A stretch of 64,000 nucleotides of DNA from an uncultured delta proteobacterium (lineage in GTDB: Bacteria > Desulfobacterota > Binatia > UBA9968). The notes under the pieces were generated by a model, which saw nothing but the letters and a program-made list of their open reading frames with translations, ran no database searches and had not been told where the DNA came from. How positions within the stretch are numbered: position 1 is the stretch's first letter; the number at the start of each line of letters is the position of its first letter. Below are positions 1,886 through 30,683 of the stretch, in pieces. The translations under genes were made by a program, and so were the position numbers. The DNA lies in assembly GCA_963745035.1 (NCBI GenBank), contig CAVUVW010000011.1, positions 128,001 through 192,000 of the forward strand, written 5' to 3'.

Positions 1886-2898
1886 ATTGAATTAAATTCT
1901 CCACCAGTATTAGCCGGGCGCTGAAACTGTCGTATCCTCCTCTCTCTAAAAACAAGGGAGAGGAGAAAAGTCATGCGGCAGGTCATTCGACGATTTTTGA
2001 AGCACCTCCAAGCGGAGAAAAACGCAAGTCCATCCACCATAGAATCCTACCAATACGACCTAAACAAGTTCGACGACTATGTCGTTCATCGACTCGGAAA
2101 CAGGTTCTTACCAGGAGATATTTCCCGCGACCACATACGAGATTATCTTACGTGGCTCTCGGAAGCCATCAAAAGCCAAACGGTCCATTGGCTTGTGCAC
2201 GGGCTTTGGCAGCGATACGGTCGTTTTTTAAATACGCTCATCGAGCAGGGATGCTGAGAGACAATCCCACTGCAGATATTGCCCTTCCAAAAATCAGGAT
2301 GGGCGAAATCCGCGCTCTGTCACAGGATGAATGCGGTCGGCTTCCTGCGAGTTGTCGAGACGAATCGGAGTCCATTTAGAAAAATCAGGGACAGGGCAAT
2401 AATAGCGACATTCCTCTTAACCGGAGCGAGATTACGCGAAATTGTGCAGCTGGACAAAGCCGACATCGACCTTCATCAATCGACAGTACGGCTGCATCGT
2501 AAAGGCGGGGACATTAACATACTGCCTTTGGCTGACTCGGCAAAAACAGAACTGAAATTGTACCTAAAGCAGCGGCGGAAGAGGAGCCGCGCAAGGGCAC
2601 TATTTATATCTTGCCAGAATCGAAGAATATCACGTGGCGCGGTTTGGTATCTGGTGAAGAAATATTTCAAGAAATGCCGACTGAGAACGCGCGGCATGGG
2701 ACCACACGCTTTGCGGCATACCTTTGCGACACTGCTTTTAAGCCACGGAGAAAACCTCAGAGTCATTCAGAGTCTTATGAATCACAAAAGTCTGGCGACG
2801 ACAGCACGGTATTTGCCTTCGCGAAGCAAAGAGCTGGTAAAAGCCGTGAACGGTCTGAAGCTGTTGCGTGGCTAGAATGTGCCGTCGTTCAGTTCAAT
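1886..2898 (+). mobile_element. Putative ~1-kb recombinase element bounded by the left and right halves of the array repeat
   Basis: attgaattaaattctccacc at 1886 and cgtcgttcagttcaat at 2883-2898 enclose only the recombinase gene. Confidence 0.7.
1973..2875 (+). CDS. XerC/XerD-like tyrosine recombinase (two frameshifts, ~2160 and ~2340)
   Basis: N-terminal SAM-like domain (ASPSTIESYQYDL), RSFFKY..DNP, TGARLREI, HALRHTFAT, MNHKSLATTARY; RBS ggagaggag; no IntI-type insertion before HxLRH. Confidence 0.9.
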
Positions 2899-5507: not shown

Positions 5508-5575
5508 GATTGAACTGAATTCTCCATCAACGTAATCTCGCGTGGCATCACATTGAAGCGTCGTTCAGTTCAATC
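5508..5575 (+). repeat. Array repeat, full copy
   Basis: gattgaactgaattctccatcaacgtaatctcgcgtggcatcacattgaagcgtcgttcagttcaatc. Confidence 0.95.
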
Positions 5576-5731
5576 TCAGGCTAAATTTGATCTTGCCATT
5601 TGATGAATACTGTCGAAGGCATCGCCGCGCGGAACGTCTGATATTCAGTCAGCGTGCTTCTCAGTTCGATGTCCGCTCGCCCTCTCATAAACGGCTTGCT
5701 TGATCGCCGCAGGTAGTCAGGGGGCCACCCA

Positions 5732-6543
5732 TCAGAAGGTTGCATGCGTGTCCTGCCATCCGAGTCCGTTCCAAAACACTGTTTCGAGCAATCGCCTTAT
5801 TTTCCGACTTGGAAGATTGCGAAAGATCCCATTGTTCGGCCCTACCATGCGGTAATCCAAATGAATCCGCCGGTAATTCCATTTGACACTGTCAAGCGGT
5901 CGCCATTCGCCAGGGGCCTCCTCGCCGAACAGCCCGCTTGAGCCGCCTTCAAACCGATGGTCGACGAAAATGCCCTCTCTTGCCGGGTTGGGGCATCGTT
6001 GCTCAGTAATAGTGAGTTGTGGGACAATCTTGAATCTCTTGTATCCCAGCTGATCGAGTAGATGCAGTTGCGTGAACGTGTCCTTGATCGACGTCGCGCT
6101 TGCCTCCACCGAAATATACTTCGGCTTCTCCTCTACGCTGAGCAGACCTTCGAGGCATACGGAATCCATTCCCTCGATATCTACTTTCATGTAGTACGGC
6201 ACACCGAATTTTAGGATGACGTCCTTGATCGTAGTCGCCTCGACCTTAACCGGATGACTCTTGAATCCTCGCGCCTCGTTTCTTTTGACCCATTCGGGGT
6301 TTGCTGTCCCCCATATGCTGACTTGCTCGTTGACAAAAAAATCGATGGTTCCGACGGTATGACTGATCGCCTTGTTGATGATCTGTAATTGGCCAGAGCC
6401 GATCGCTGCCGAGAATTTGTGTACACACTCCTCGCAGAGTTGGGCATTCGCCTCGATTCCGACGACCCGAAATCCTTTTCTGAGATAGAACTCGTGTCTT
6501 CTCCTGTATGCATTCCAACGTCATAGATTAAGTCGCCTGGCAT
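5732..6543 (-). CDS. FkbM family methyltransferase (frameshifted)
   Basis: LIYDVGMHTGEDT at N-terminus; YYMKVDIEGMD..CL; PKYISVE. Confidence 0.8.
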
Positions 6544-6651
6544 CTCGTAATCTCCAGGGTTATGAATACGCGCCGATCCGTCTCTCGAAAGATCGTCATC
6601 GCTTCGGGCACAACGGCGCTTTTCGACTCAACGATGGGTCCGAAACCCGTC

Positions 6652-6798
6652 TGTGCTGGTTTGTGCCAGAACCAGAGCAGAACAAACACCTCCCATTGTC
6701 TAACACCCAGGAGGTGAACATTAAAATAGTTGGATTTTTTCGTTGATGTTCCGCTCTGGTTTGGCCCCGACTTGGCTCTTAATCAGCGGGTCCGGGGT
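6652..6798 (+). other. att-like scar: arm-type repeats plus tRNA-Lys(CTT) anticodon/variable-loop fragment
   Basis: tgtgctggt-t-tgtgccag (6652-6669); ttggctcttaatcagcgggtccggggt (6772-6798). Confidence 0.6.
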
Positions 6799-6812
6799 GT
6801 TCTGGATGCTAG

Positions 6813-6880
6813 GATTGAATTGAATTCTCCACCAACGCAATCTCGCGCGGCATCACATTGAAGCGTCGTTCAGTTCAATC
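6813..6880 (+). repeat. Array repeat, full copy
   Basis: taggattgaattgaattctccacc...gcgtcgttcagttcaatccta. Confidence 0.95.
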
Positions 6881-7626: not shown

Positions 7627-10600
7627 ATGACTGCTACAGCTCCAATTATCACGCTCTCGCCGCGGGATTACGACGCGGTTTTGTTCGACCTCGACGGTGT
7701 ACTGACGAAAACGGCGACCGTGCATGCCGCGGCATGGAAAAAACTGTTCGATGGATATCTAAAGCAGCGCGCCCAAGACACCGGAGGACCCTTCGTCGCC
7801 TTCGACATCGATGCCGACTACCTGCGCTATGTCGACGGCAAACCGCGTTACGATGGCGTGGTGTCTTTTCTCCACTCGCGCGGAATTGATTTGCCGTTGG
7901 GTTCGGCCGGCGACGCGCCCGGCACGGGAACGGTACATGCTCTCGGCAAGCTAAAGGATCGATACTTCACGGAGAGTCTGGAGGAGCAAGGCGTCGAGAC
8001 TTATGAACCGACGATCTCTCTCGTGCGCACGCTGCGCGCGCAAGAGATCAAGACCGCGGTCGTCTCTTCGAGCAACAACTGCGCGGCAGTTCTGCAGGCC
8101 GCCGGCATCGCGCATCTTTTCGATACGCGGGTTGATGGCAGGGAGATCGCCCGCCTCGCGCTCAAAGGCAAGCCGGCGCCCGATGCTTTCCTCGAAGCGG
8201 CGCGGCGTCTGGCTGTCGAGCCGTCCCGCGTCGTCGTCGTGGAGGACGCGATCGCCGGCGTCGCTGCGGGACGTGCCGGCCGTTTCTGCTGTGTGATCGG
8301 TGTCGATCGAGGTGGGCATTCTAAGGCGCTGCGTGAGGCCGGTGCTAATGTCGTGGTAACGAGCTTGGCGCAGGTTAGGATCAGTCCAGAACCCGCCTCC
8401 GCCTGGACGCTAGTGTATGAAGGATACGAGCCAGCGCGGGAAAGAATCCGCGAAGCCCTATGCGCGCTAGGGAACGGCTATTTCGCTACTCGTGGAGCAG
8501 CGACCTGGGCGCGGGCGGATGAGATTCACTACCCCGGGACCTACCTCGCCTGCGGCTATAACCGAATGCGCACTGATATTGCGGGCCGGATTGTCGAAAA
8601 CGAAGATCTCGTCAATCTTCCCAATTGGCTCCCCCTCGAATTTCGTATCGGCGAGGAGGACTGGTTCGATCCGGCGACGGTCACGATCCGTCTTTATGAT
8701 CAGCGGCTAGATCTGCGACGTGGCATGCTGCTGCGAACGATCCGCTTCGAAGATCGCCAGGGGCGGCAGACTACGCTGAAGGAACGCCGTCTGGTGTCCA
8801 TGAGCGACATGCATGTGGCGGCGCTCGAGCTGAGTCTTTCTGCCGAGAATTGGTCGGCCAAGGTCACGGTGCGTGCATCAATCGACGGCCGGATTGTCAA
8901 TAGCGGCGCGCAGCTCTACCTCAAATTCAACAACAAACATCTCGAGTTGCTGGAGCGCCAGGTCCTCGACAGCGACGGCGTTTATATGCTCGTGCGCACC
9001 AGCCAGTCACATATTTACGTCGCCCAGGCGGCGCGAACTCAAGCGTTTGTCGACGGCAAAATCCGTGAGGTGCCGCGCCGTGTTATCGAAGAGCCGGAAT
9101 ACATCGGGCAAGAGATGGTGATCGACGTGCGGCAGGGCGAGACTTTGGCCCTCGAGAAGATCGCGTCTTTCTACACCTCGCGTGATCAAGCTATTTCGGA
9201 GTGCGGTTTGGCGGCGCGTAAGGCGATTGGCCGGGCGGGCCGCTTTGACGCGGTGATGGCCGAGCATGTTCTTTCCTGGAAGCACTTGTGGCGCCGCTTC
9301 GATGTGCATATTCAGCCGGCCGAACCGGGATTCAAACTGAATGTACTGATGCTGTTGCGGCTGAACATGTTTCATCTCTTGCAGGCCGTCTCGCCCAACT
9401 CGATCGGACTCGATATCGGCGTGCCGGCGCGCGGCTGGACCGGCGAGGCCTACGAGGGCCACATTTTTTGGGACGAGCTTTTTATTTTTCCGTTCCTAAA
9501 TTATCGCATGCCGGAAATCACCCGCTCGTTGCTATTGTACCGCTATCGCCGTTTGGGGGAGGCGCGTGCCGCAGCGAGAATGGCGGGGTTGCGGGGCGCG
9601 ATGTTTCCCTGGCAAAGCGGCAGCGACGGGCAGGAAGAGACGCAGGAGCTCAACTTCAACCCGCGCTCACAGCGCTGGGTGCCGGACAATTCTTACCTGC
9701 AGCGCCATGTCGGCAGCGCCATCGCTTACAACGCTTGGCAGTATTATCAAGTCACTCACGATGTCGAGTTTATGCAAGCCCATGGCGCCGAGCTGATTCT
9801 CGAAATCGCTCGCTTTTGGTCGAGTATCGCGAGTTTCAACGAGGAGAGCGGTCGGTACGAGATTAGCGGGGTTATGGGCCCGGACGAGTTCCACGAGGGA
9901 TACCCCGGCTCATCGTCGCCCGGCCTTAATAACAATGCCTTCACTAACCTCATGGCGGCTTGGGTGCTGTGCCGCGCGCTCGATGTGCTCGAACTCCTTC
10001 CCGACATACGCCGCGCCGAGCTGAGCGCCCGACTCGGGCTATCGCCTGACGAGATTGTGCGATGGGGCGAAGTGAGCCGCAAGATGGTCGTGCCCTTTCA
10101 CGGCGACGGCATCATCAGCCAGTTTACAGGGTATGAAAATCTCGCTGAGCTGAACTGGGCGGACTACCGCGCCCGCTACGGCAATATTCAGCGGCTCGAT
10201 TTGATTCTGGAAGCCGAGAACGACAGTGCGAACCGCTACAAATTATCGAAGCAAGCCGACGTGCTGATGTTGTTTTATCTGTTTTCCGCGCAGGAGCTGG
10301 GCGAGCTGTTCAGGCGTTTAGGTTATCCGTTCGACCCTGAGATGATTCATCGCAACGTTGCCTACTATGACGCGCGCTCGTCGCATGGTTCGACGCTCTC
10401 GCGCGTAGTCCATGCGTGGGTGTTGGCGCGTTCGGACAGGCCGCGCTCGATGACTTATTTCGCCGAGGCACTGCAGAGCGATGTCAGCGATATTCAGCAA
10501 GGGACTACCGCCGAAGGTGTTCATCTCGGCGCTATGGCGGGATCGGTAGATCTGGTGCAGCGCGTCTCGACAGGCATCGAAATTACCGGCGACGTTCTGC

Positions 10601-10869
10601 GACTCGATCCACAATTGCCCCAGGAAATGGAGCGGCTCGACATGCGCATTCGCTACCGCGGACATTCGCTCGATTTGCGGCTAACCCGCGATACCCTGAC
10701 AGTGCGCGGCCGCGAGCGCGGTGTCGCTGCGATCAAGCTGGGAATCAAAGACGAGGTATACGACTTTCAATGCGGCAGCACGCGCGTCTTCAAACTCACC
10801 CGCGAACAGGCTGAAAGCAATGCATCAGATAGGACGATCACCGCCAAGGGCCGAAGAGCCCGAAGCTAA
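7627..10869 (+). CDS. HAD beta-phosphoglucomutase-like domain fused to GH65 (trehalose/maltose phosphorylase-like)
   Basis: LFDLDGV, GKPAPD, VVEDA; LGNGYFATRG, YEGHIFWDE, GPDEFH, KQADV, HGSTLS. Confidence 0.92.
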   Translation: MTATAPIITLSPRDYDAVLFDLDGVLTKTATVHAAAWKKLFDGYLKQRAQDTGGPFVAFDIDADYLRYVDGKPRYDGVVSFLHSRGIDLPLGSAGDAPGTGTVHALGKLKDRYFTESLEEQGVETYEPTISLVRTLRAQEIKTAVVSSSNNCAAVLQAAGIAHLFDTRVDGREIARLALKGKPAPDAFLEAARRLAVEPSRVVVVEDAIAGVAAGRAGRFCCVIGVDRGGHSKALREAGANVVVTSLAQVRISPEPASAWTLVYEGYEPARERIREALCALGNGYFATRGAATWARADEIHYPGTYLACGYNRMRTDIAGRIVENEDLVNLPNWLPLEFRIGEEDWFDPATVTIRLYDQRLDLRRGMLLRTIRFEDRQGRQTTLKERRLVSMSDMHVAALELSLSAENWSAKVTVRASIDGRIVNSGAQLYLKFNNKHLELLERQVLDSDGVYMLVRTSQSHIYVAQAARTQAFVDGKIREVPRRVIEEPEYIGQEMVIDVRQGETLALEKIASFYTSRDQAISECGLAARKAIGRAGRFDAVMAEHVLSWKHLWRRFDVHIQPAEPGFKLNVLMLLRLNMFHLLQAVSPNSIGLDIGVPARGWTGEAYEGHIFWDELFIFPFLNYRMPEITRSLLLYRYRRLGEARAAARMAGLRGAMFPWQSGSDGQEETQELNFNPRSQRWVPDNSYLQRHVGSAIAYNAWQYYQVTHDVEFMQAHGAELILEIARFWSSIASFNEESGRYEISGVMGPDEFHEGYPGSSSPGLNNNAFTNLMAAWVLCRALDVLELLPDIRRAELSARLGLSPDEIVRWGEVSRKMVVPFHGDGIISQFTGYENLAELNWADYRARYGNIQRLDLILEAENDSANRYKLSKQADVLMLFYLFSAQELGELFRRLGYPFDPEMIHRNVAYYDARSSHGSTLSRVVHAWVLARSDRPRSMTYFAEALQSDVSDIQQGTTAEGVHLGAMAGSVDLVQRVSTGIEITGDVLRLDPQLPQEMERLDMRIRYRGHSLDLRLTRDTLTVRGRERGVAAIKLGIKDEVYDFQCGSTRVFKLTREQAESNASDRTITAKGRRARS

Positions 10870-11307: not shown

Positions 11308-11334
11308 GATTGAACTGATTTCTCCATCAATTCA
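11308..11334 (+). repeat. Array repeat, left half only
   Basis: gccaggattgaactgatttctccatcaattca. Confidence 0.85.
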
Positions 11335-11719
11335 GGTGGAGCGCAGCGCTCGGTGCTTCCCCGGCCTCTCCAGACTGGGAGTCTGGCGCGGCGATATCTA
11401 TGGTGGCATGTCTGGAGGGAGAGATTTAGTCAGCGCTTTCGAGCGTGCAACCGTCCGGCGCGACCTTGAAGATTGAAGCATCGGGAATCGTCACGTAGCC
11501 GTCCAGCCGCTTGCAGTAGTACAGCTTGACGATCGTTTCGCTTGGTATCAGTTCGCCCTCCGGGTCAATGATTTCCCGAAGACAAAAATAAGCAAGCTGA
11601 AAAGAACGTCACCGAAGAAGAAGACAAGAAGAGCGCGCTTAATTGCAGGTGCCATTGTCACACGCCGAAACACAAGCACTAGCGGGTCTTCAGCTCTAAC
11701 TGTGCTTGATAAACGCGGA

Positions 11720-14222: not shown

Positions 14223-14245
14223 ACTGAATTGAATTCTCCGCCGGT
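14223..14245 (+). repeat. Array repeat, degenerate left half
   Basis: actgaattgaattctccgccggt, resembles the 1886 left end. Confidence 0.5.
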
Positions 14246-14367
14246 ACACTAGCGTTCTCCAGCCAAAGCGATTTGACTGATGGACCCGTCACAGGAGAAG
14301 TCGACCGGCGTTTACTACGACAGCTCACTTAACAGGTGGTGTCGATACTACGCTCAAAGGACACATC

Positions 14368-14849: not shown

Positions 14850-14913
14850 GATTGAACTGATTTCTCCATCAAGCCAATCTTGCCAGATTAATGGTGCGTC
14901 GTTCAGTTCAATC
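14850..14913 (+). repeat. Array repeat, full copy
   Basis: gattgaactgatttctccatcaagcc...gcgtcgttcagttcaatc. Confidence 0.92.
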
Positions 14914-14989: not shown

Positions 14990-16027
14990 GTGTCCGTGAT
15001 AAGTCTTGTCACGAACGAGGCGCGAAATGAAAAAACGAGTTGGTCATCAATCCTGGTTGCAGCCATGCTGCTCGCTGTTGCAGTCATAGCCGAGGCGCAG
15101 CAGCAGGCGAAGAAGGTACCTCGGATAGGGTATCTAGCATCGAGAGACCCGGCTACGGAGTCCACGCGGTCCGAGCCAGTTCGACTGGCTCTGCGGGAGC
15201 TTGGCTACATAGAAGGAAAGAACGTCGTCATCGACTACCGATATGCGGAGGGGAAGCGTGATCGCTACCCTGAGCTTCTGGCCGAACTGGTCCGTCTCAA
15301 GGTTGATGTCATCGTGGCAGCAGGAGGCGAGCCGACGGTCCGGGCGGCCATTAAAGCGACGAAGACGATTCCCATCGTAATGACAGGTGGTGGGGCCGAT
15401 CCTGTCGAGGCAGGCTATATCAAAAGCCTTGCCCGTCCCGGCGGCAACGTCACCGGCATTACGAACCTTGGCTTAGAGCTAGGCGGAAAACGGCTGGAGT
15501 TGCTCAAAGAAGCTCTTCCCAAGGTGGCCCGTGTCGCGGTTCTCTACGATCCGGCGGCAGGTTCAGACTTCCTACGCGAGGTGAATGAGGATCTCCCAAT
15601 CGCGGCACATGGGTTGGGTTTGGATATTCGGTCTTGGGAGGCACGAGCTGTGGGCGATTTCGAAAGGATATTCGCTGCGCTAAACAAGGAGCGCCCCGAT
15701 GGGCTCTATGTGACCGGGAGCCTGCTCTTTCATACTAACCGAAAACGGATTGTCGAGTTTGCGTTACAGAGCCGGTTACCGTCTGTATACAGTAGAAGAG
15801 AATATGTAGATGAAGGGGGGCTCATATACTATGGGGCGGACCTCGCGGACAGCTACCGGCGTGTCGCATATTACGTGGACAAAATTCTCAAAGGTACGAA
15901 GCCTGCGGACTTGCCTGTCGAACAACCTGCAAAGTTCGAGCTGGCGATCAATCTTAAAACCGCAAAGCAGATCGGTCTGACGATTCCACAAAAAGTGTTG
16001 TCGCGGGCGGATAAGGTGATCAAGTAA
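14990..16027 (+). CDS. ABC transporter substrate-binding protein (ABC_sub_bind type)
   Basis: PRIGYL, LRELGYIEGKN, SLARPGGNVTG, KPADLPVEQP.KFELAINLKTAKQIG, RADKVIK; true start probably ATG ~15028 with a frameshift. Confidence 0.92.
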   Translation: MSVISLVTNEARNEKTSWSSILVAAMLLAVAVIAEAQQQAKKVPRIGYLASRDPATESTRSEPVRLALRELGYIEGKNVVIDYRYAEGKRDRYPELLAELVRLKVDVIVAAGGEPTVRAAIKATKTIPIVMTGGGADPVEAGYIKSLARPGGNVTGITNLGLELGGKRLELLKEALPKVARVAVLYDPAAGSDFLREVNEDLPIAAHGLGLDIRSWEARAVGDFERIFAALNKERPDGLYVTGSLLFHTNRKRIVEFALQSRLPSVYSRREYVDEGGLIYYGADLADSYRRVAYYVDKILKGTKPADLPVEQPAKFELAINLKTAKQIGLTIPQKVLSRADKVIK

Positions 16028-16044: not shown

Positions 16045-16104
16045 GATTGAACTGAATTCTCCATCTAATCAGTCTCGCCTTAGATCAACCTGAAGCGTCG
16101 TTCA
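16045..16104 (+). repeat. Array repeat, near-full copy (right IR decayed)
   Basis: ctaggattgaactgaattctccatc...tgaagcgtcgttca. Confidence 0.9.
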
Positions 16105-16227
16105 TGTTGGAGCCGCATTCGAAAAAGCGAAGATAGAGCGTACCCAAGGGCTTCTCGTAAATGCTCGATTCCGATCGGGTTAAAGCCCTCCAATAAAGCA
16201 TTTTCTTCCTTCCCAAATTTTTTACAC

Positions 16228-16260
16228 GATCAAACTGAAGCGTCGTTTAGTTGAATTCTA
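16228..16260 (+). repeat. Array repeat, right half only
   Basis: gatcaaactgaagcgtcgtttagttgaattcta. Confidence 0.75.
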
Positions 16261-17246: not shown

Positions 17247-17294
17247 GATTGAACTGAATTCTCCATCAACGCAATCTCGCCTGAAACACATTGA
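17247..17294 (+). repeat. Array repeat, left half plus core
   Basis: gccaggattgaactgaattctccatcaacgcaatctcgc...cacattga. Confidence 0.88.
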
Positions 17295-17589
17295 CGTTCG
17301 CATGTGTCCTCAGTGTAAGTCGCCGCACGTGCCGAAAGACCAGAGGCGGGAGCGCTAAGATGCCATTTCGCGTTATGCGGCGATGGGCCTTATACATGCG
17401 ACATTTCCCGTTCTCGCGAATGGAAAACTTAGATGTTTAGAACGCGCAGCGAGAGAGAGGAGGCAGAAAATGTGTGGACTAGAAATCTTTACTGATTAGA
17501 GTGCGGCTATCCCATGGATGGTTGGTGGTTACTCAGTACGTTTGGTCGGGACTTGGAATATCTGCCAAACAGGCATCAGTCGCCCGTGG

Positions 17590-18525: not shown

Positions 18526-18594
18526 GATTGAACTGCATTCTCCATCAACGCAATCTCGCGTGGCATCAACATTGAAGCGTCGTTCAGTTCAATC
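18526..18594 (+). repeat. Array repeat, full copy abutting an attC-like 3' end
   Basis: gctcagccttggcGTTAGCG-ccag-gattgaactgcattctcc...gttcagttcaatc. Confidence 0.95.
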
Positions 18595-19202
18595 TCAGGC
18601 TAAATCTGGTCCTCCCAGTCGACGAATATCTGTTGCCTTCGTATCGTAAATCCGAGTTTCGTAGCGATTCGAATTCAGCCAGATCTTCGAGGCTCATCGC
18701 CCAGGATAAACAAAGACTCTGCCGGGAAATCTCCCCTTGGGCTAAAACGTGGGATCAATACATCATCGCGCCGGATTATGATTATAATTTACTCGGTGGG
18801 TGCGCTGGGTGTAGAGTTCGTATATTGGTTGAATCTCTCTTTTAAGGGGAAACTTTATGGATAAAAATGCGCCTGGCCTTGATGTCGGAACTAAGTGCGG
18901 ACATTCGTGTACAAGACTAGATGGCCCCATTAAGAATGACTTTGGTTGTTGTATTTGTATGGGCGAGACGCAGTTGTGTACATCGTGCGAAAAGAGAAGA
19001 CTCTCGGAAGATCCCGTTGGGGAGAAGGACGAAAGTGTCAACACACCTGGAAGCCGAAAAGATTAAGGTTTAGGAACCGGCGTTGGATCGACGGCCTCGG
19101 CTAGAATAGCGCGAATCAACCGGATCTTTTGCCCGACAACTTTTTGAGATCGTAAGTTACGGTCTCGTGGCGCGGGCGGGTAAAGTGATGAAGTGACGCC
19201 AA

Positions 19203-19236
19203 GATTGAACTGTATTCTCCATCAATTCAATTTCAC
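19203..19236 (+). repeat. Array repeat, left half
   Basis: gccaagattgaactgtattctccatcaattcaat. Confidence 0.85.
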
Positions 19237-19321
19237 GTCGATGACCCTGGAGTGCTACGGTCCGTGCTGCCCGGCCCTTTTCCTGCGCGGGCGGACAGAG
19301 TGATAAAATAAGGAGCGCATT

Positions 19322-19984
19322 ATGATCGGTGCCAAGGCTCTGTTAGAAGGGATTCGGCAAGATTTGCAGCCCGTCACGGAACGGCTTCTGGGGCATCCTT
19401 ACGTGAAGGCTCTGGAGGAAGGGCAGATTGAGCGGGAGAAGCTCCGTCTTTTTGCCGGCGAGCAGTACAGCATCATAGCGAGTGATCTCAAAAGCGTCGC
19501 TTATTTGCTTAGCCGCTTCGGTAGCGCTCCGAGCCGTGATTTCTTTCTCGGAATCCTGCAGGGTGAAAGAGCTGCCTGGGATGGCTTGCTAACGTTCGTC
19601 AATGCCCTCGGCCTAAGCGAAGCTCAACTGAGCAAGCACGAGCCAGCGGCTGGCGCTCATGCCTACACCTGCTACATGGCGTGGCTTGCGCTCTATGCCT
19701 CTGACGCCGAGATTGCTGCTGCCTACCTGGTCAATTTTCCAGCGTGGGGTCAGAACTGTGGCCGCCTGAGCCGGATTCTGAAAGAGCGTTTCGGTATGGG
19801 CGAGAAGGAAGTCGCTTTTTTTGATCTCTTCGCCTCTCCTCCAACTACATTTGAAGCCGACGCTCTGAAAGTTATTCAGCAGGGACTCGATCGAGGCATC
19901 GAGCCGAGCCTGATCCAACGGGCGGCTCGGTTACTCCAGGCCTACGAGCTCATGTATTGGGATACCCTCTACGGGGCGTCTTAG
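19322..19984 (+). CDS. TenA/THI-4 (heme-oxygenase-like) family protein
   Basis: HPYVKALEEG, AHAYTCYMAWL, NFPAWG, YELMYWD. Confidence 0.8.
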   Translation: MIGAKALLEGIRQDLQPVTERLLGHPYVKALEEGQIEREKLRLFAGEQYSIIASDLKSVAYLLSRFGSAPSRDFFLGILQGERAAWDGLLTFVNALGLSEAQLSKHEPAAGAHAYTCYMAWLALYASDAEIAAAYLVNFPAWGQNCGRLSRILKERFGMGEKEVAFFDLFASPPTTFEADALKVIQQGLDRGIEPSLIQRAARLLQAYELMYWDTLYGAS

Positions 19985-20045
19985 CCGTGCTGGCAGGGCG
20001 GATAAAGTGATCGAGTGAGCGAAGAAAACCAAGCGGCAATGCTAG

Positions 20046-20113
20046 GATTGAACTGAATTCTCCATCAAACCAATCTTACGTCTCATCCAACTGAAGCGTC
20101 GTTCAGTTCAATC
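20046..20113 (+). repeat. Array repeat, full copy
   Basis: taggattgaactgaa...ttcagttcaatccta, perfect 15-bp IR. Confidence 0.95.
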
Positions 20114-21355: not shown

Positions 21356-21422
21356 GATTGAACTGAATTCTCCATCAAACCAATCTTACGTCTCATCCAA
21401 CACAAGCGTCGTTCAGTTCAAT
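21356..21422 (+). repeat. Array repeat, full copy (rightmost)
   Basis: gattgaactgaattctccatcaaaccaatcttacgtctcatccaacacaagcgtcgttcagttcaat. Confidence 0.95.
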
Positions 21423-26961: not shown

Positions 26962-28149
26962 ATGACCGTGGAAAAATCTCCGCCGCTTTGGACGCCGGCA
27001 TTTGTCCTGCTGTGCGGCGCGCAGTTTTTTGGCTCGGCGCAGCACGCCCTGCTGCAACCCACTTTTCCGCTTTACATCACCGCGCTCGGAGGAACACCGT
27101 TTCAGGTCGGCTTGGTGCTTGCCTGCTTCGCGGTGACAAGCGTCGTCTTTCGTCCGCTTATCGGCGGCTGGGCCGACCAATGGTCCGAGGCCGGAGTGTC
27201 GGTTTGCGGCCTGTCACTGCTGTCGCTCGCGGTGCTGATCTGTTTCATCCCGCATCCCGAAGCGACCATGTTCGCCAATGCGCTGCGCGGCATCGGCTGG
27301 GCGGCGATGAGCGCCGCCGGTTATTCCTTGCTCGCGCTGAGCGCGCCGCCGCACCGCCGCGGCGAGGCATCAGGTTACTATAGCGGCGTGCAGGCGAGCG
27401 GCACAATCCTGCTTTCCCGCTGTCGCGCTGTGGCTCATCGACGCGCCTTTCGGCGGTTTCGATGTGGTTTTCACCGCAGCCATTGCTTTCGCTGCGCTCG
27501 GCGCCGCCATTAGCGCGCAACTCTTCCGGCGCGGCGCCTAAGAAAATTCACCAGAGCCGAATCGTCGCGGAGACGGGGCCTTGGTGGCAGGAAATTTTGA
27601 ATGTCCTGGATCGCGAGATCATTCTCGCCTCGGTGCTTTCGTTCGGCTCCCATGTGACTTTCCCTGCGGTGGCGAGTTTTTTGGTGCTCTATGCGCGCGA
27701 GCTCGGCATCGACAACATCGGTTGGTTCTACGTCGTAAGCGGCATCACCAGCATCCTCTGCTCGTCCGCTGTTGGGCAAGGTTTCCGACAGGATCGGCCG
27801 GCGCCGCGCCTTGCTCGCGTGTTTTGTTCTCCAAACTATCGCACTACTGACGCTCGCCTATGCTTCCGAGCTCATCGCTTTGATGATTTCAGGCGCGCTC
27901 TATATGGTGGGATTGGCCATGAGCAGCTCGACCACCTTGGCCATCGCCATGGAGCAGGCCAAACCCGAACGACGAGGCGAGCCATGGCGACGTTCTCCAT
28001 CGCCTTGCCTCTAAGCAACGGCGTCGGCGCGCTTGATCTGCGGCAGTTTGGTGCAATCGATCGGCTTTTTTTGGATGTATCTTGTCGCCGCGGGCATTGC
28101 CGCCGGCGGTTTGCTGGTTACGATGGCCAACCGTGCGCGCCTGAAGTAG
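26962..28149 (+). CDS. MFS transporter 1 (several frameshifts)
   Basis: LWTPAF..PTFPLYI..RRGEASGYY; GKVSDRIGRR. Confidence 0.8.
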
Positions 28150-28303
28150 AGGAGAAAGAATTGCGAGGGCTAATCACCCAATGGCTTAGAGAAAGTTTGT
28201 CCGCTTCGCCAGCACTTTTCTCGATCGTGCTCGTGCGACGTGATCGTGGTCGAGTCCTGACACGAACACGGTCACGAACACGGTGGCCTTCAAGACCGCG
28301 CCC

Positions 28304-29490
28304 ATGACCACCGAGCGCTCCGACACCCTCTGGAACAAAACTTTCCTTCTGCTCTGTAGCGCGCAGTTTCTGGGCTATGCGCAGCATGCCATGCTCTCCC
28401 CGGTTCTGCCTCTCTACGTCACCCAGCTCGGCGGCTCGCCCTTTGTCGTCGGCATGGTGCTCGCGTGCTTCGCAGCGTCAAGCGTCATTGTCCGTCCTTT
28501 AGTCGGTCATTGGTGCGATCGCTGGAGCGAAGCGAAGGTCATGATCTCCGGACTGGTTTTTCAGGGCGCGAGCATTCTTATCTGCTTTATTCCCTTCGTC
28601 AGCATGGCGATGCTCGCCAATGGCCTGCGTGGCATTGGATGGGGCGGGCTCAACACCGGCGGCTACTCGCTGCTCGCCCATATCGCGCCCGAGTCACGCC
28701 GCGGCGAGGCCTCCGGTCTTTACAGCGGCGTGCAAAGCTCGTCGTCGATCTTGTTTCCCGCCTTCGCTCTCTGGTTGCTGCACGCTTCGTTCGGCGGCTT
28801 CGGAGTGGTGTTCGTCGCGACCGCGCTATTTTCTCTCGCTGGCGCAGTGCTCGGCGCGGTCATGACCCTCCAGATGCCGAAGATCGCGCGCTCGAGCGCC
28901 GCTCTCGATCCGGCGCGCCGCTGGTGGCGCGAGATTTTCCGTTTCATCGAGCCGGAGATCTTACTGCCGTCGGTGATGCTCGCCTGGCTGAATATTTCCC
29001 TCCCTTCCATCACCAACTTCAGCGTGCTCTATGCGCAAGAGCTCGGCATCATCGACTTCGGACCGTTTTTTATTGTCATCGGCTTCACGAGCTTGCTCGG
29101 CCGGCCCATGCTCGGGCGGCTTTCCGACAAAATCGGCCGCGAATCTATCGGTCGGCGTCGGTTTCGGTCTGCAACTCGTAAGCCTGCTCCTGATCGCCTT
29201 CGTGTCCAATCTCGTCGGCATGATCGTGTGCGGCACGCTCTACATGCTCGGCAACGCGATCGGCAGCTCGACGACCCTGGCGCTGGCAGTCGAGCGCGCC
29301 GCATCCGCAGCGCCGCGGCAAGCAAATGGCGAGTTTCTCCGTCGCCTATCCGTTGAGCTACGGCATCGGTTCATTGATCGTCGGCAGCGCGGTGGAAGCG
29401 GCGGGTTATGCGGGCATGTTCTACATCATGGCCGCGATTCAGGCATTGGGCTTGATCTTCGTCGTAATCAAAGCGGACAGACTGCGCTGA
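28304..29490 (+). CDS. MFS transporter 2 (frameshifted)
   Basis: LWNKTF..PLYV..RRGEASG; GRLSDKIGR. Confidence 0.8.
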
Positions 29491-29501
29491 GAAAACCAGC
29501 G

Positions 29502-30683
29502 ATGACGAGCGATCGCCAAGATTCGATCTGGACCCGCGGCTTTTCGCTCCTCTGCCTCGCCGAATTTCTCGGCTACGCGCAGCACTTCATTCTCCAGCCC
29601 ACCTTTCCGCTCTATATCACTCAACTGGGCGGCTCACCGTTTCACGTTGGTTTGGTAATCGCATCCTTCGGCGTTGCCAGCGTGATATCCCGCCCTATCC
29701 TCGGCTATTGGGCGGATCGGTGGAGCGTCACCGGGATGATGATCCTGGGCTTGTGTTTGCAGACACTGAGCATTTCGCTTTGCTTCCTGCCATTCGTCGC
29801 CGCGCTGATGCTCGCCAATGGCTTGCGCGGCATCGGCTGGTCGGGAATGAATACCGGCGGCTACACCTTGCTCGCGACGATTGCGCCCGCAGCGCGCCGC
29901 GGCGAAGCGTCGGGATACTACGGAGGCGTGCAATCCAGCGCGACGATTCTGTTTCCGGCCGTAGCGCTTTGGATCATCGATGCTCCGTTCGGCGGCTTCG
30001 ATGCGACATTTCTCTTCGCCATGTCGCTGGTGCTGCTCGGCGCCGGCGCGGCGATCGCCTTATCGCGCGCCGTTCCCAAGGCGCCTCGTCAATCCGTCAC
30101 GGCATCCTCCGAACCGTGGTGGCGCGAAATTTTGAACGTATTCGATCGCCATATCTTGCTCGCCGCAACCTTGATGTTCACCTTGCATGTCTCGCTTCCC
30201 TGTTTCTCGAGCTTCGTCGTGCTCTATGCCCGCGAGTTGGCGATCGATCACTTCGGCTGGTACTTCGTTGCAACCGGAGTCACCAGCATGCTGGCGCGCC
30301 CGCTTCTTGGTCGGGTCTCGGATAAGATCGGCGCCGGCCGCTCGCTCATCGTCGCCTACGTACTCGAATCCGCCGCGCTGCTGATGATGCCGTTCGCCGG
30401 CAATCTTGCCGGTGTCATGTTGGGCGGAGCGCTTTACTTCATGGGATCGGCGATCGGCGGAGCGAGAATTCTCGCGCTGGCGATGGAACAAGCGCCAGCC
30501 GAAAGGCGCGGCCGCGCCATGGCGAGTTTCTCCGTGGCGTTTCCTTTGAGCAACGGCACCGGAGCGATGCTGAGCGGCCTGGTCGTCGATCTTGCCGGCT
30601 ATAACTGGATGTACATCACCGCGGCTCTACCCTGCGCCGTTGGACTTCTCCTCACTGCGAAATACTGGAAGAGCTTGAGATAG
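29502..30683 (+). CDS. MFS transporter 3
   Basis: IWTRGF..PTFPLYI..RRGEASGYY..GRVSDKIG. Confidence 0.88.
   Translation: MTSDRQDSIWTRGFSLLCLAEFLGYAQHFILQPTFPLYITQLGGSPFHVGLVIASFGVASVISRPILGYWADRWSVTGMMILGLCLQTLSISLCFLPFVAALMLANGLRGIGWSGMNTGGYTLLATIAPAARRGEASGYYGGVQSSATILFPAVALWIIDAPFGGFDATFLFAMSLVLLGAGAAIALSRAVPKAPRQSVTASSEPWWREILNVFDRHILLAATLMFTLHVSLPCFSSFVVLYARELAIDHFGWYFVATGVTSMLARPLLGRVSDKIGAGRSLIVAYVLESAALLMMPFAGNLAGVMLGGALYFMGSAIGGARILALAMEQAPAERRGRAMASFSVAFPLSNGTGAMLSGLVVDLAGYNWMYITAALPCAVGLLLTAKYWKSLR

Follow-up and report, generated by a model that had tools for sequence, protein, structure and literature searches.

A Xer-like recombinase gene nested between dif-like sites in integron-like cassette arrays of an uncultured Binatia bacterium

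To our knowledge, no system other than integrons has been well described in which a tyrosine recombinase builds up a stock of single-gene cassettes. Selfish gene-bearing units that occur only inside the recombination sites of cassette arrays are represented by the IS1111-attC insertion sequences and the group IIC-attC introns. In REP/RAYT systems, the gene of an HUH enzyme, RAYT, is bracketed by REPs, and the REPs are scattered between genes. The integron integrase IntI is thought to have been derived from Xer-like enzymes (PMC4889954; PMC4792948). About 35 extra residues near patch III are given as its hallmark, and little sequence conservation is described for attC sites (PMC4889954). The dif site is 28 bp long and consists of two 11-bp arms around a 6-bp central region, and the pdif sites of Acinetobacter plasmids, which are dependent on XerC/D, have the same 11-6-11 layout and flank small gene modules in different contexts (PMC6449649). 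The literature that we searched gave no description of a recombinase nested in paired dif-like sites, nor of integrons in connection with Binatia.

Here, we studied a stretch of 64,000 nucleotides (the window; G000:C11:128001-192000) from the genome of an uncultured delta proteobacterium of the lineage Binatia, designated G000. Our confidence is about evenly balanced on the central reading, namely that positions 1886-2898 are a conserved module whose recombinase gene lies between recognition sites of the encoded enzyme, on which the enzyme would act, and that the module is dead in this genome.

The arrays around this module are similar to integrons and CALIN-type arrays in several respects: the sites are co-oriented imperfect palindromes, mostly single promoterless-looking genes of mixed function lie between them, the tyrosine recombinase is related to Xer, its gene is often decayed, and arrays also occur without the gene. 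Unlike IntI, the recombinase lacks the IntI insertion (69 bits on the IntI model versus a cut-off of 265), and its gene lies inside a site rather than beside an attI. The sites differ as well, having 11-bp arms and two nearly invariant 6-bp spacers; the arrays were not found next to IntI, and G000 carries a separate canonical integron besides. As in the XerC/D-dif and pdif systems, 28-bp sites of 11-6-11 layout flank small gene modules, different contexts being seen here for the recombinase unit and two cassettes, and the recombinase is closest to XerC and XerD in sequence. However, the enzyme is below the XerC and XerD cut-offs (204 and 203 bits versus 335 and 330), and its sites are adjacent pairs with two unrelated spacers, whereas pdif is one site type in alternating orientation. 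The present arrays are also chromosomal, in soil metagenome-assembled genomes (MAGs) labelled mostly Binatia or delta proteobacterium, and the enzyme gene is nested in the site pair. Like the attC-targeting elements, the unit is a selfish-type, gene-bearing unit inside the recombination sites of arrays, but the enzyme is a DDE-type transposase or a reverse transcriptase in those elements and a tyrosine recombinase in this unit, which has both half-sites as conserved ends of its own. The bracketing of an enzyme gene by inverted copies of a short palindromic repeat spread through the genome is shared with REP/RAYT; the enzyme here is a tyrosine recombinase and not an HUH enzyme, and the repeats form cassette arrays and are not scattered like REPs.

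An earlier note on this DNA had placed one half of the repeat 87 bp before the start of the recombinase gene and the other 8 bp after its stop, and our coordinates agree. The L half (ATTGAATTAAATTCTCCACC) is at 1886-1905, ahead of the ATG at 1973, and the R half (CGTCGTTCAGTTCAAT) is at 2883-2898, past the TAG at 2873-2875. Each belongs to a 28-bp site on the plus strand. The left (LH) site, 1886-1913, consists of an outer arm (1886-1896, ATTGAATTAAA), the spacer TTCTCC (1897-1902) and an inner arm (1903-1913, ACCAGTATTAG), and is identified by the motif statistics, by the 11-6-11 scan and by the presence of the same arm and spacer upstream of the gene in relatives. In the right (RH) site, 2871-2898, a weak inner arm (2871-2881) overlaps the stop codon and is followed by the spacer CCGTCG (2882-2887; consensus GCGTCG) and the outer arm TTCAGTTCAAT (2888-2898). 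Counted by hand, the outer inverted repeat of the unit is 11 bp long with 9 of 11 positions complementary, and the inner arms of the sites adjoining the gene match the consensus poorly.

Between the left site and the gene, upstream alignments made by eye point to a putative RH-like remnant (CTGAAAC TGTCGT, 1921-1933, plus strand); the homology between short and long gene-bearing units also starts at about this position (CCTGTCGTAT in short units and CCTGTCTTAT in long units, by eye). A weak conserved stem follows at 1938-1965 on the plus strand, and its 3' arm contains the ribosome-binding stretch GGAGAGGAG. With 7 predicted pairs, no compensatory double changes in 18 loci and -3.9 kcal/mol, the evidence for this stem, which would hide the ribosome-binding stretch, is weak. 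No Rfam family matched positions 1-22500 at E up to 0.1.

The recombinase gene itself (1973-2875, plus strand) is a pseudogene in the assembled sequence. It is spread over three frames (window ORFs 1973-2257, 2152-2379 and 2279-2875), whereas its intact relatives, such as those in L023 and at L117 10292-11194, encode 301 aa. The two frameshifts proposed earlier were found again by comparison with three intact homologues: 4 bp (GTCG) are missing at about 2165, and one base is added at about 2342-2344. Contigs from relatives, when aligned to the window, have the intact versions, with GTCG added at 2164 (X3 and X5) and one base fewer at 2344 (X1 and X2). The window's own strain was not found across the gene in public runs, the best of which contained 0.47 of the sampled words. 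The two frameshifts may be real in the organism or may be errors of the assembly. This is the single copy of the gene in G000.

In Pfam, the first gene piece matched Phage_int_SAM_1 and the last piece matched Phage_integrase (105 bits). The catalytic R, K, HxxR, H and Y are readable in the last piece, and in an intact homologue they align to those of XerD, which is also the best solved relative (1a0p). The pieces gave top scores on the XerA, XerC and XerD models and weak scores on IntI. The recombinase was placed by such family models. It scored 204.0 bits on XerC (TIGR02224, cut-off 335.15), 203.2 bits on XerD (TIGR02225, cut-off 329.6), 196 bits on XerA, also under the cut-off, and 68.8 bits on IntI (TIGR02249, cut-off 265). 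The host has a true XerD of its own, which scored 343 bits, above the TIGR02225 cut-off. The IntI-specific insertion is absent from two recombinases of the family (P0107 and P0136) and present in the IntI proteins of G000 and G001 (alignment A1). Judged from these sequence comparisons, the recombinase is Xer-like and is neither an IntI nor an orthologue of XerC or XerD; the catalytic set and the lack of the IntI insertion had already been read from the window in the earlier note.

Among 768 candidates, a search with the last gene piece gave 524 proteins at E up to 0.001. Of these, the best 120 are 66-100% identical, mostly 301 aa long and from metagenomes, and many are on contigs of about 1-3 kb. 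With the intact P0107 as a query, we collected 6 loci from genome contigs and 80 of 90 loci from metagenome contigs. The R half was present at an offset of +11 or +12 from the last codon in 48 of the 51 loci with enough sequence, and a strict L half was present within 130 bp upstream in 33 of 64 loci, at 80-87 bp in the short units. Among the 31 loci without a strict L half, 9 had a degenerate one (by eye) and the other 22 carried a different conserved upstream stretch. This stretch, found in the long units, is about 700 bp and contains a 148-aa ORF on the opposite strand. We examined 14 long units: the L half lies 730-870 bp upstream in 10, either at about 730 or at 830-870 bp, three have no L half within 3 mismatches, and one (L026) has an R-type site there. 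The recombinase gene thus sits between L and R in nearly all loci, and the cargo between them is either the gene alone (about 1.0 kb) or the gene and the 148-aa ORF (about 1.7-1.9 kb). The physical tie between enzyme and repeat that had been proposed from the window alone therefore extends to the homologues, in which the gene is conserved together with the two half-repeats as one unit.

Some further features of these loci were observed. The 148-aa ORF (for example, L047 1840-2286, minus strand) is divergent to the recombinase gene and matched no Pfam or NCBIfam family, only unnamed Atlas clusters. Two genomes, G001 and G002, have two recombinase units each, in tandem around one cassette (L117 10207-13378, and L212/L213 at about 57.3-60.5 kb of G002:C8). 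The two G001 proteins are 86% identical, and one of the two G002 copies is frameshifted. Sister clades (P0226, P0231 and P0232) are 40-55% identical. The nearest sister clade is represented by a single locus (n = 1) without such flanks, too little for an analysis of co-evolution between enzyme and site.

Of 17 recombinase genes taken for the dN/dS analysis, 3 contained stops and were dropped; the median dN/dS among the 14 intact genes was 0.08 (88 pairs). The flanking sites were 93% (LH) and 91% (RH) identical, compared with 61% at third codon positions, and were conserved to the level of codon positions 1 and 2. Both the gene and its flanking sites are under purifying selection. The neighbours of the gene-bearing unit differ between loci, and hence the unit moves.

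Elsewhere, the same sites form a repeat of about 66 bp that consists of two adjacent 28-bp sites, LH (outer arm, TTCTCC, inner arm) and RH (inner arm, GCGTCG, outer arm). With up to 3 mismatches, the L motif had 8 matches in the window (expected 0.00) and the R motif had 10 (expected 0.59; shuffle maximum 4), all on the plus strand. We also scanned this genome and the arrays of two others for ATTGAACTGAA-N6-TTCAGTTCAAT with any spacer and up to 5 arm mismatches. The two strands together gave 170 matches. GCGTCG was the spacer in 39 of them and TTCTCC in 38, and the others had the complements of these or singletons; only TTCTCC and GCGTCG are common. Solo half-sites are also common, with 50 solo L and 74 solo R matches, some of which are expected by chance. 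The inner arm agrees with the mirrored outer arm at 6.1 of 11 positions (background, 2.7), and in some solo sites in 9-11 of 11, one of them being a perfect palindrome-armed site of 28 bp. By their 28-bp, 11-6-11 layout, the half-sites are of the dif type, and the like arms on both sides of a site suggest that one recombinase, rather than a C/D pair, would use them. Two repeats in G000 (C26:82182 and C26:96614) stop right after the RH spacer (GCGACG), without the outer arm; both abut a cassette start that elsewhere comes after a complete repeat.

In the window, the repeats extend from 553 to 21422 in one orientation, at a spacing of 0.6-1.3 kb or more. Complete small repeats (LH plus RH), all on the plus strand, are at 553-630, which is the first of the array, 5509-5574, 6814-6879, 14851-14912, 18527-18593, 20047-20112 and 21357-21422, which is the last. 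The remaining members, on the same strand, are incomplete or altered. A solo LH site at 11309-11336 has an inner arm (ATCAATTCAGG) equal to the mirrored outer arm in 8 of 11 positions, and a second one at 19204-19231 has near-palindromic arms (ATTGAACTGTA TTCTCC ATCAATTCAAT). At 14223-14258, comparison by eye with relatives suggests that the left end of a second gene-bearing unit has survived as a relic (TTCTCCGCCGGTACACTAGCGTTCT); no gene follows it. The element at 16046-16256 is a small repeat with a degenerate right arm (16046-16111) and an extra R half (16241-16256), and that at 17248-17300 is an LH site with interior and a truncated right site.

The genes between the repeats in the window are unrelated to each other and encode MgtC, a DUF4440-like protein, two glyoxalase-fold proteins, an ABC substrate-binding protein, TENA and a methyltransferase. 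Further along the window, the G+C content is higher than in the array. Further arrays are present in G000 on at least eight other contigs. The steps within arrays comprise 53 from R to L of cassette length and 43 from L to R under 80 bp; the sites are co-oriented, with mostly single ORFs between them, as in integron cassette arrays. A 1080-aa ORF (7627-10869), far larger than the other cassettes, lies within the array, after the repeat at 6814-6879 and before the solo LH site at 11309. Outside the array, at 27268-29954, a stretch of 147 nt occurs three times, about 1.2-1.3 kb apart and with 67-73% identity, and looks like three tandem paralogous genes.

The earlier note had taken the small copies, there of about 68 bp, to be either non-autonomous derivatives of the gene-bearing unit or sites that the unit occupies. 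The first possibility was not supported. No direct repeat abuts 78 of the 81 small repeats, so that target-site duplications of the MITE type are lacking; the interiors beyond arms and spacers have nothing in common with the ends of the gene-bearing unit; the arrays are ordered, co-oriented and gene-spaced rather than scattered; and the gene was not found in seven repeat-bearing genomes. These findings also make it very improbable that the whole is a transposon-like autonomous element of about 1 kb with terminal inverted repeats, of which the copies of about 66 bp are miniature derivatives. The 11-bp inverted repeats that bound the unit and the small copies alike, the many contexts of the unit, and the many relatives on contigs of about 1-3 kb, as often seen with repeated elements, would all fit such an element; on the other hand, the small copies are clustered, their interiors are unrelated to the subterminal sequence of the unit, and the common solo 28-bp half-sites suit recombination sites better than deletion derivatives. 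The second possibility fits better. The 1,012-bp unit in the window fills a small-repeat slot between two ABC substrate-binding cassettes, and paralogous flanks elsewhere are 77-112 bp apart; as these flank matches are only at the level of paralogues (74-88% identity), the comparison speaks to architecture and not to excision. The genome contigs searched contained no stretch (0 matches) that would be the precise empty site of a gene-bearing unit.

The arrays resemble integron arrays, and yet they were not found joined to an integron integrase gene, the sole near case being G001, in which an intact IntI is 5 kb from two recombinase units. It could be argued that the repeats are attC sites of CALIN-type arrays, whose cassettes IntI moves as folded single strands, and that the recombinase is a passenger in the variable loop of one attC; we consider this unlikely. 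The same-orientation arrays with mostly single, unrelated small genes are as this explanation would have them, and intact IntI genes are present in G000, G001 and G005. In G000, the true IntI (C6:42134-43036, 445 bits; L013 6039-7169, minus strand) is intact. It has, however, its own attC sites: at least two canonical hairpins follow the gene immediately on the same strand (L013 5262-5362 and 4608-4686), in an inverted-integrase layout. The R boxes of these attC sites are 7 bp (TAAC...GTTAG), and their stems are long, rich in G+C and bulged; the sites have no relation to the repeat. Canonical attC sites also adjoin an IntI relative in L125. The repeat family was found in 0 of 80 loci of the closest IntI relatives, 17 of which have single matches (one of them two), all with 3 mismatches. 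Conversely, IntI was absent from 86 recombinase loci, 27 small-repeat loci and 16 array regions (129 in total). In G005, 53 R sites are distributed over at least ten arrays, none of which is on its IntI contigs, and IntI had no match in G356, a genome whose arrays are spread over many contigs.

The structure of the repeat bears on the same question. As a single strand, the repeat would fold with an outer stem of 12-15 pairs, an open 6 x 6 loop of the two unlike spacers and a variable inner stem. The imperfect palindrome, with an outer stem of 11-15 bp and an unpaired 6 x 6 loop, the AAC and GTT in the outer arms, and two repeat subtypes that differ in their inner arms and yet retain short complementary stretches (by eye) would be in keeping with attC. 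Against this, the arms are 11 bp and not 7 bp, both spacers hardly vary, in contrast to the poor sequence conservation described for attC sites (PMC4889954), and in the consensus fold of 24 distinct small repeats the outer stem alone is kept. Arm variants (TGAA/TTCA and others), counted in order to locate the crossover, showed no covariation, being complementary in 2 of 26 cases within a repeat and in 4 of 33 across a cassette, and do not tell where the crossover would lie. GTTCAA motifs upstream of IntI in both G000 and G001 also favour a link with the integrase. Runs of GTTCAA every 8-9 bases were observed at L013 112-156, 910-945 and 7254-7350, and similar ones on C14 and C24; one of the L013 runs is just upstream of the IntI start and is followed by inverted TTGAAC copies.

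Another explanation, which we regard as rather improbable, is that the sites are static or served by host enzymes, and that the recombinase owes its link to them only to descent from a single old insertion. The sites could then be palindromic intergenic elements tied to the ABC substrate-binding family (terminator-like or REP-like), or dif-like sites for the host XerC/D as in Acinetobacter. Cassettes of ABC_sub_bind (PF04392), about 1,135-1,150 bp long, dominate the spacing of the arrays, remnants of the 3' end of this gene (family D9) precede many repeats, there are arrays where no recombinase copy was found, and the host has a true XerD (343 bits). Yet the neighbours of the gene-bearing unit vary by locus, which indicates movement, and its sites are 91-93% identical while third codon positions are at 61%. 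Cassettes other than ABC_sub_bind are common, and the promoter and terminator scan gave nothing above shuffles, with no terminator-like T run beside the unit. Near-identical cassettes also occur in different arrays of G000: window 5600-6836 corresponds to C26:82253-83489 (96.9%), and window 19199-20112 to C13:1123687-1124595 (98.4%), the homology stopping at or near sites in both pairs.

The ABC_sub_bind cassettes are dominant in the arrays of several genomes, the window example being at 14990-16027. Remnants of the 3' end (…ADKVIK stop) were observed in the window at 19171-19196, 19286-19311 and 19993-20018, ahead of repeats despite the presence of another cassette gene.

The repeats are much more common than the recombinase gene. 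G000 seems to belong to the same class as G001, because matches listed for G316 recur as G360 in the G000 family. The gene was found in 0 of 150 other genomes of the class of G000; among 201 genomes of the class of G001, 9 have an R site at up to one mismatch, and 4 of these have three or more. Seven repeat-bearing genomes picked regardless of the gene gave no copy (0 of 3 and 0 of 5, with one genome in both sets), and partial IntI-like matches were found in three of them. Degenerate copies of the gene are those of G005 (53 sites) and G000 and one of the two in G002. Soil MAGs labelled Candidatus Binatia or 'delta proteobacterium' are the most frequent hosts. Some contigs of 4-27 kb are labelled Pyrinomonadaceae, Udaeobacter or Verrucomicrobia; as short MAG contigs can be mis-binned, these labels may reflect mis-binning, and we do not claim a spread across phyla.

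If the module is nested in its own recognition sites, as we propose, the recombinase would bind the 11-bp arms and cut at the edges of the spacers, and cutting at the sites would place or move its own module, and perhaps cassettes. In favour of this are the fixed places of the sites around the gene, their Xer geometry, the Xer-like protein and the purifying selection on gene and sites. Against it stand the repeat-bearing genomes with no copy of the gene, the degenerate copies, the poor inner arms beside the gene, the lack of a precise empty site in the genome contigs searched, the one sister-clade locus without flanks, the IntI near the G001 units and the lack of covariation between arm variants. 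Recombination might take place on duplex sites, as that of Xer on dif, or on a fold-back form, in which the outer arms would pair and the two unlike spacers would stay open. As the gene is broken in G000, the array there would now be static unless another enzyme serves it. More tentatively, and as less likely than not, we suggest an integron-like cassette system free of IntI, in which a dedicated, nested, Xer-like recombinase of 301 aa would build and shuffle arrays at paired sites with heterospecific spacers, and which would be a second, independent origin of such a system from Xer stock.

In one genome, cassette arrays with sites of plain Xer geometry and a nested Xer-like enzyme exist beside an ordinary integron with different sites. 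Even if the enzyme does not act on the sites, the arrays are a widespread soil family, and the gene is one that lives only inside their sites. The enzyme and its site pair are compact: the protein has 301 aa, each site is 28 bp, and no cross-reaction would be expected between the two spacers. If the enzyme does act on the sites, the system would represent a second route from chromosome-dimer resolution to gene capture.
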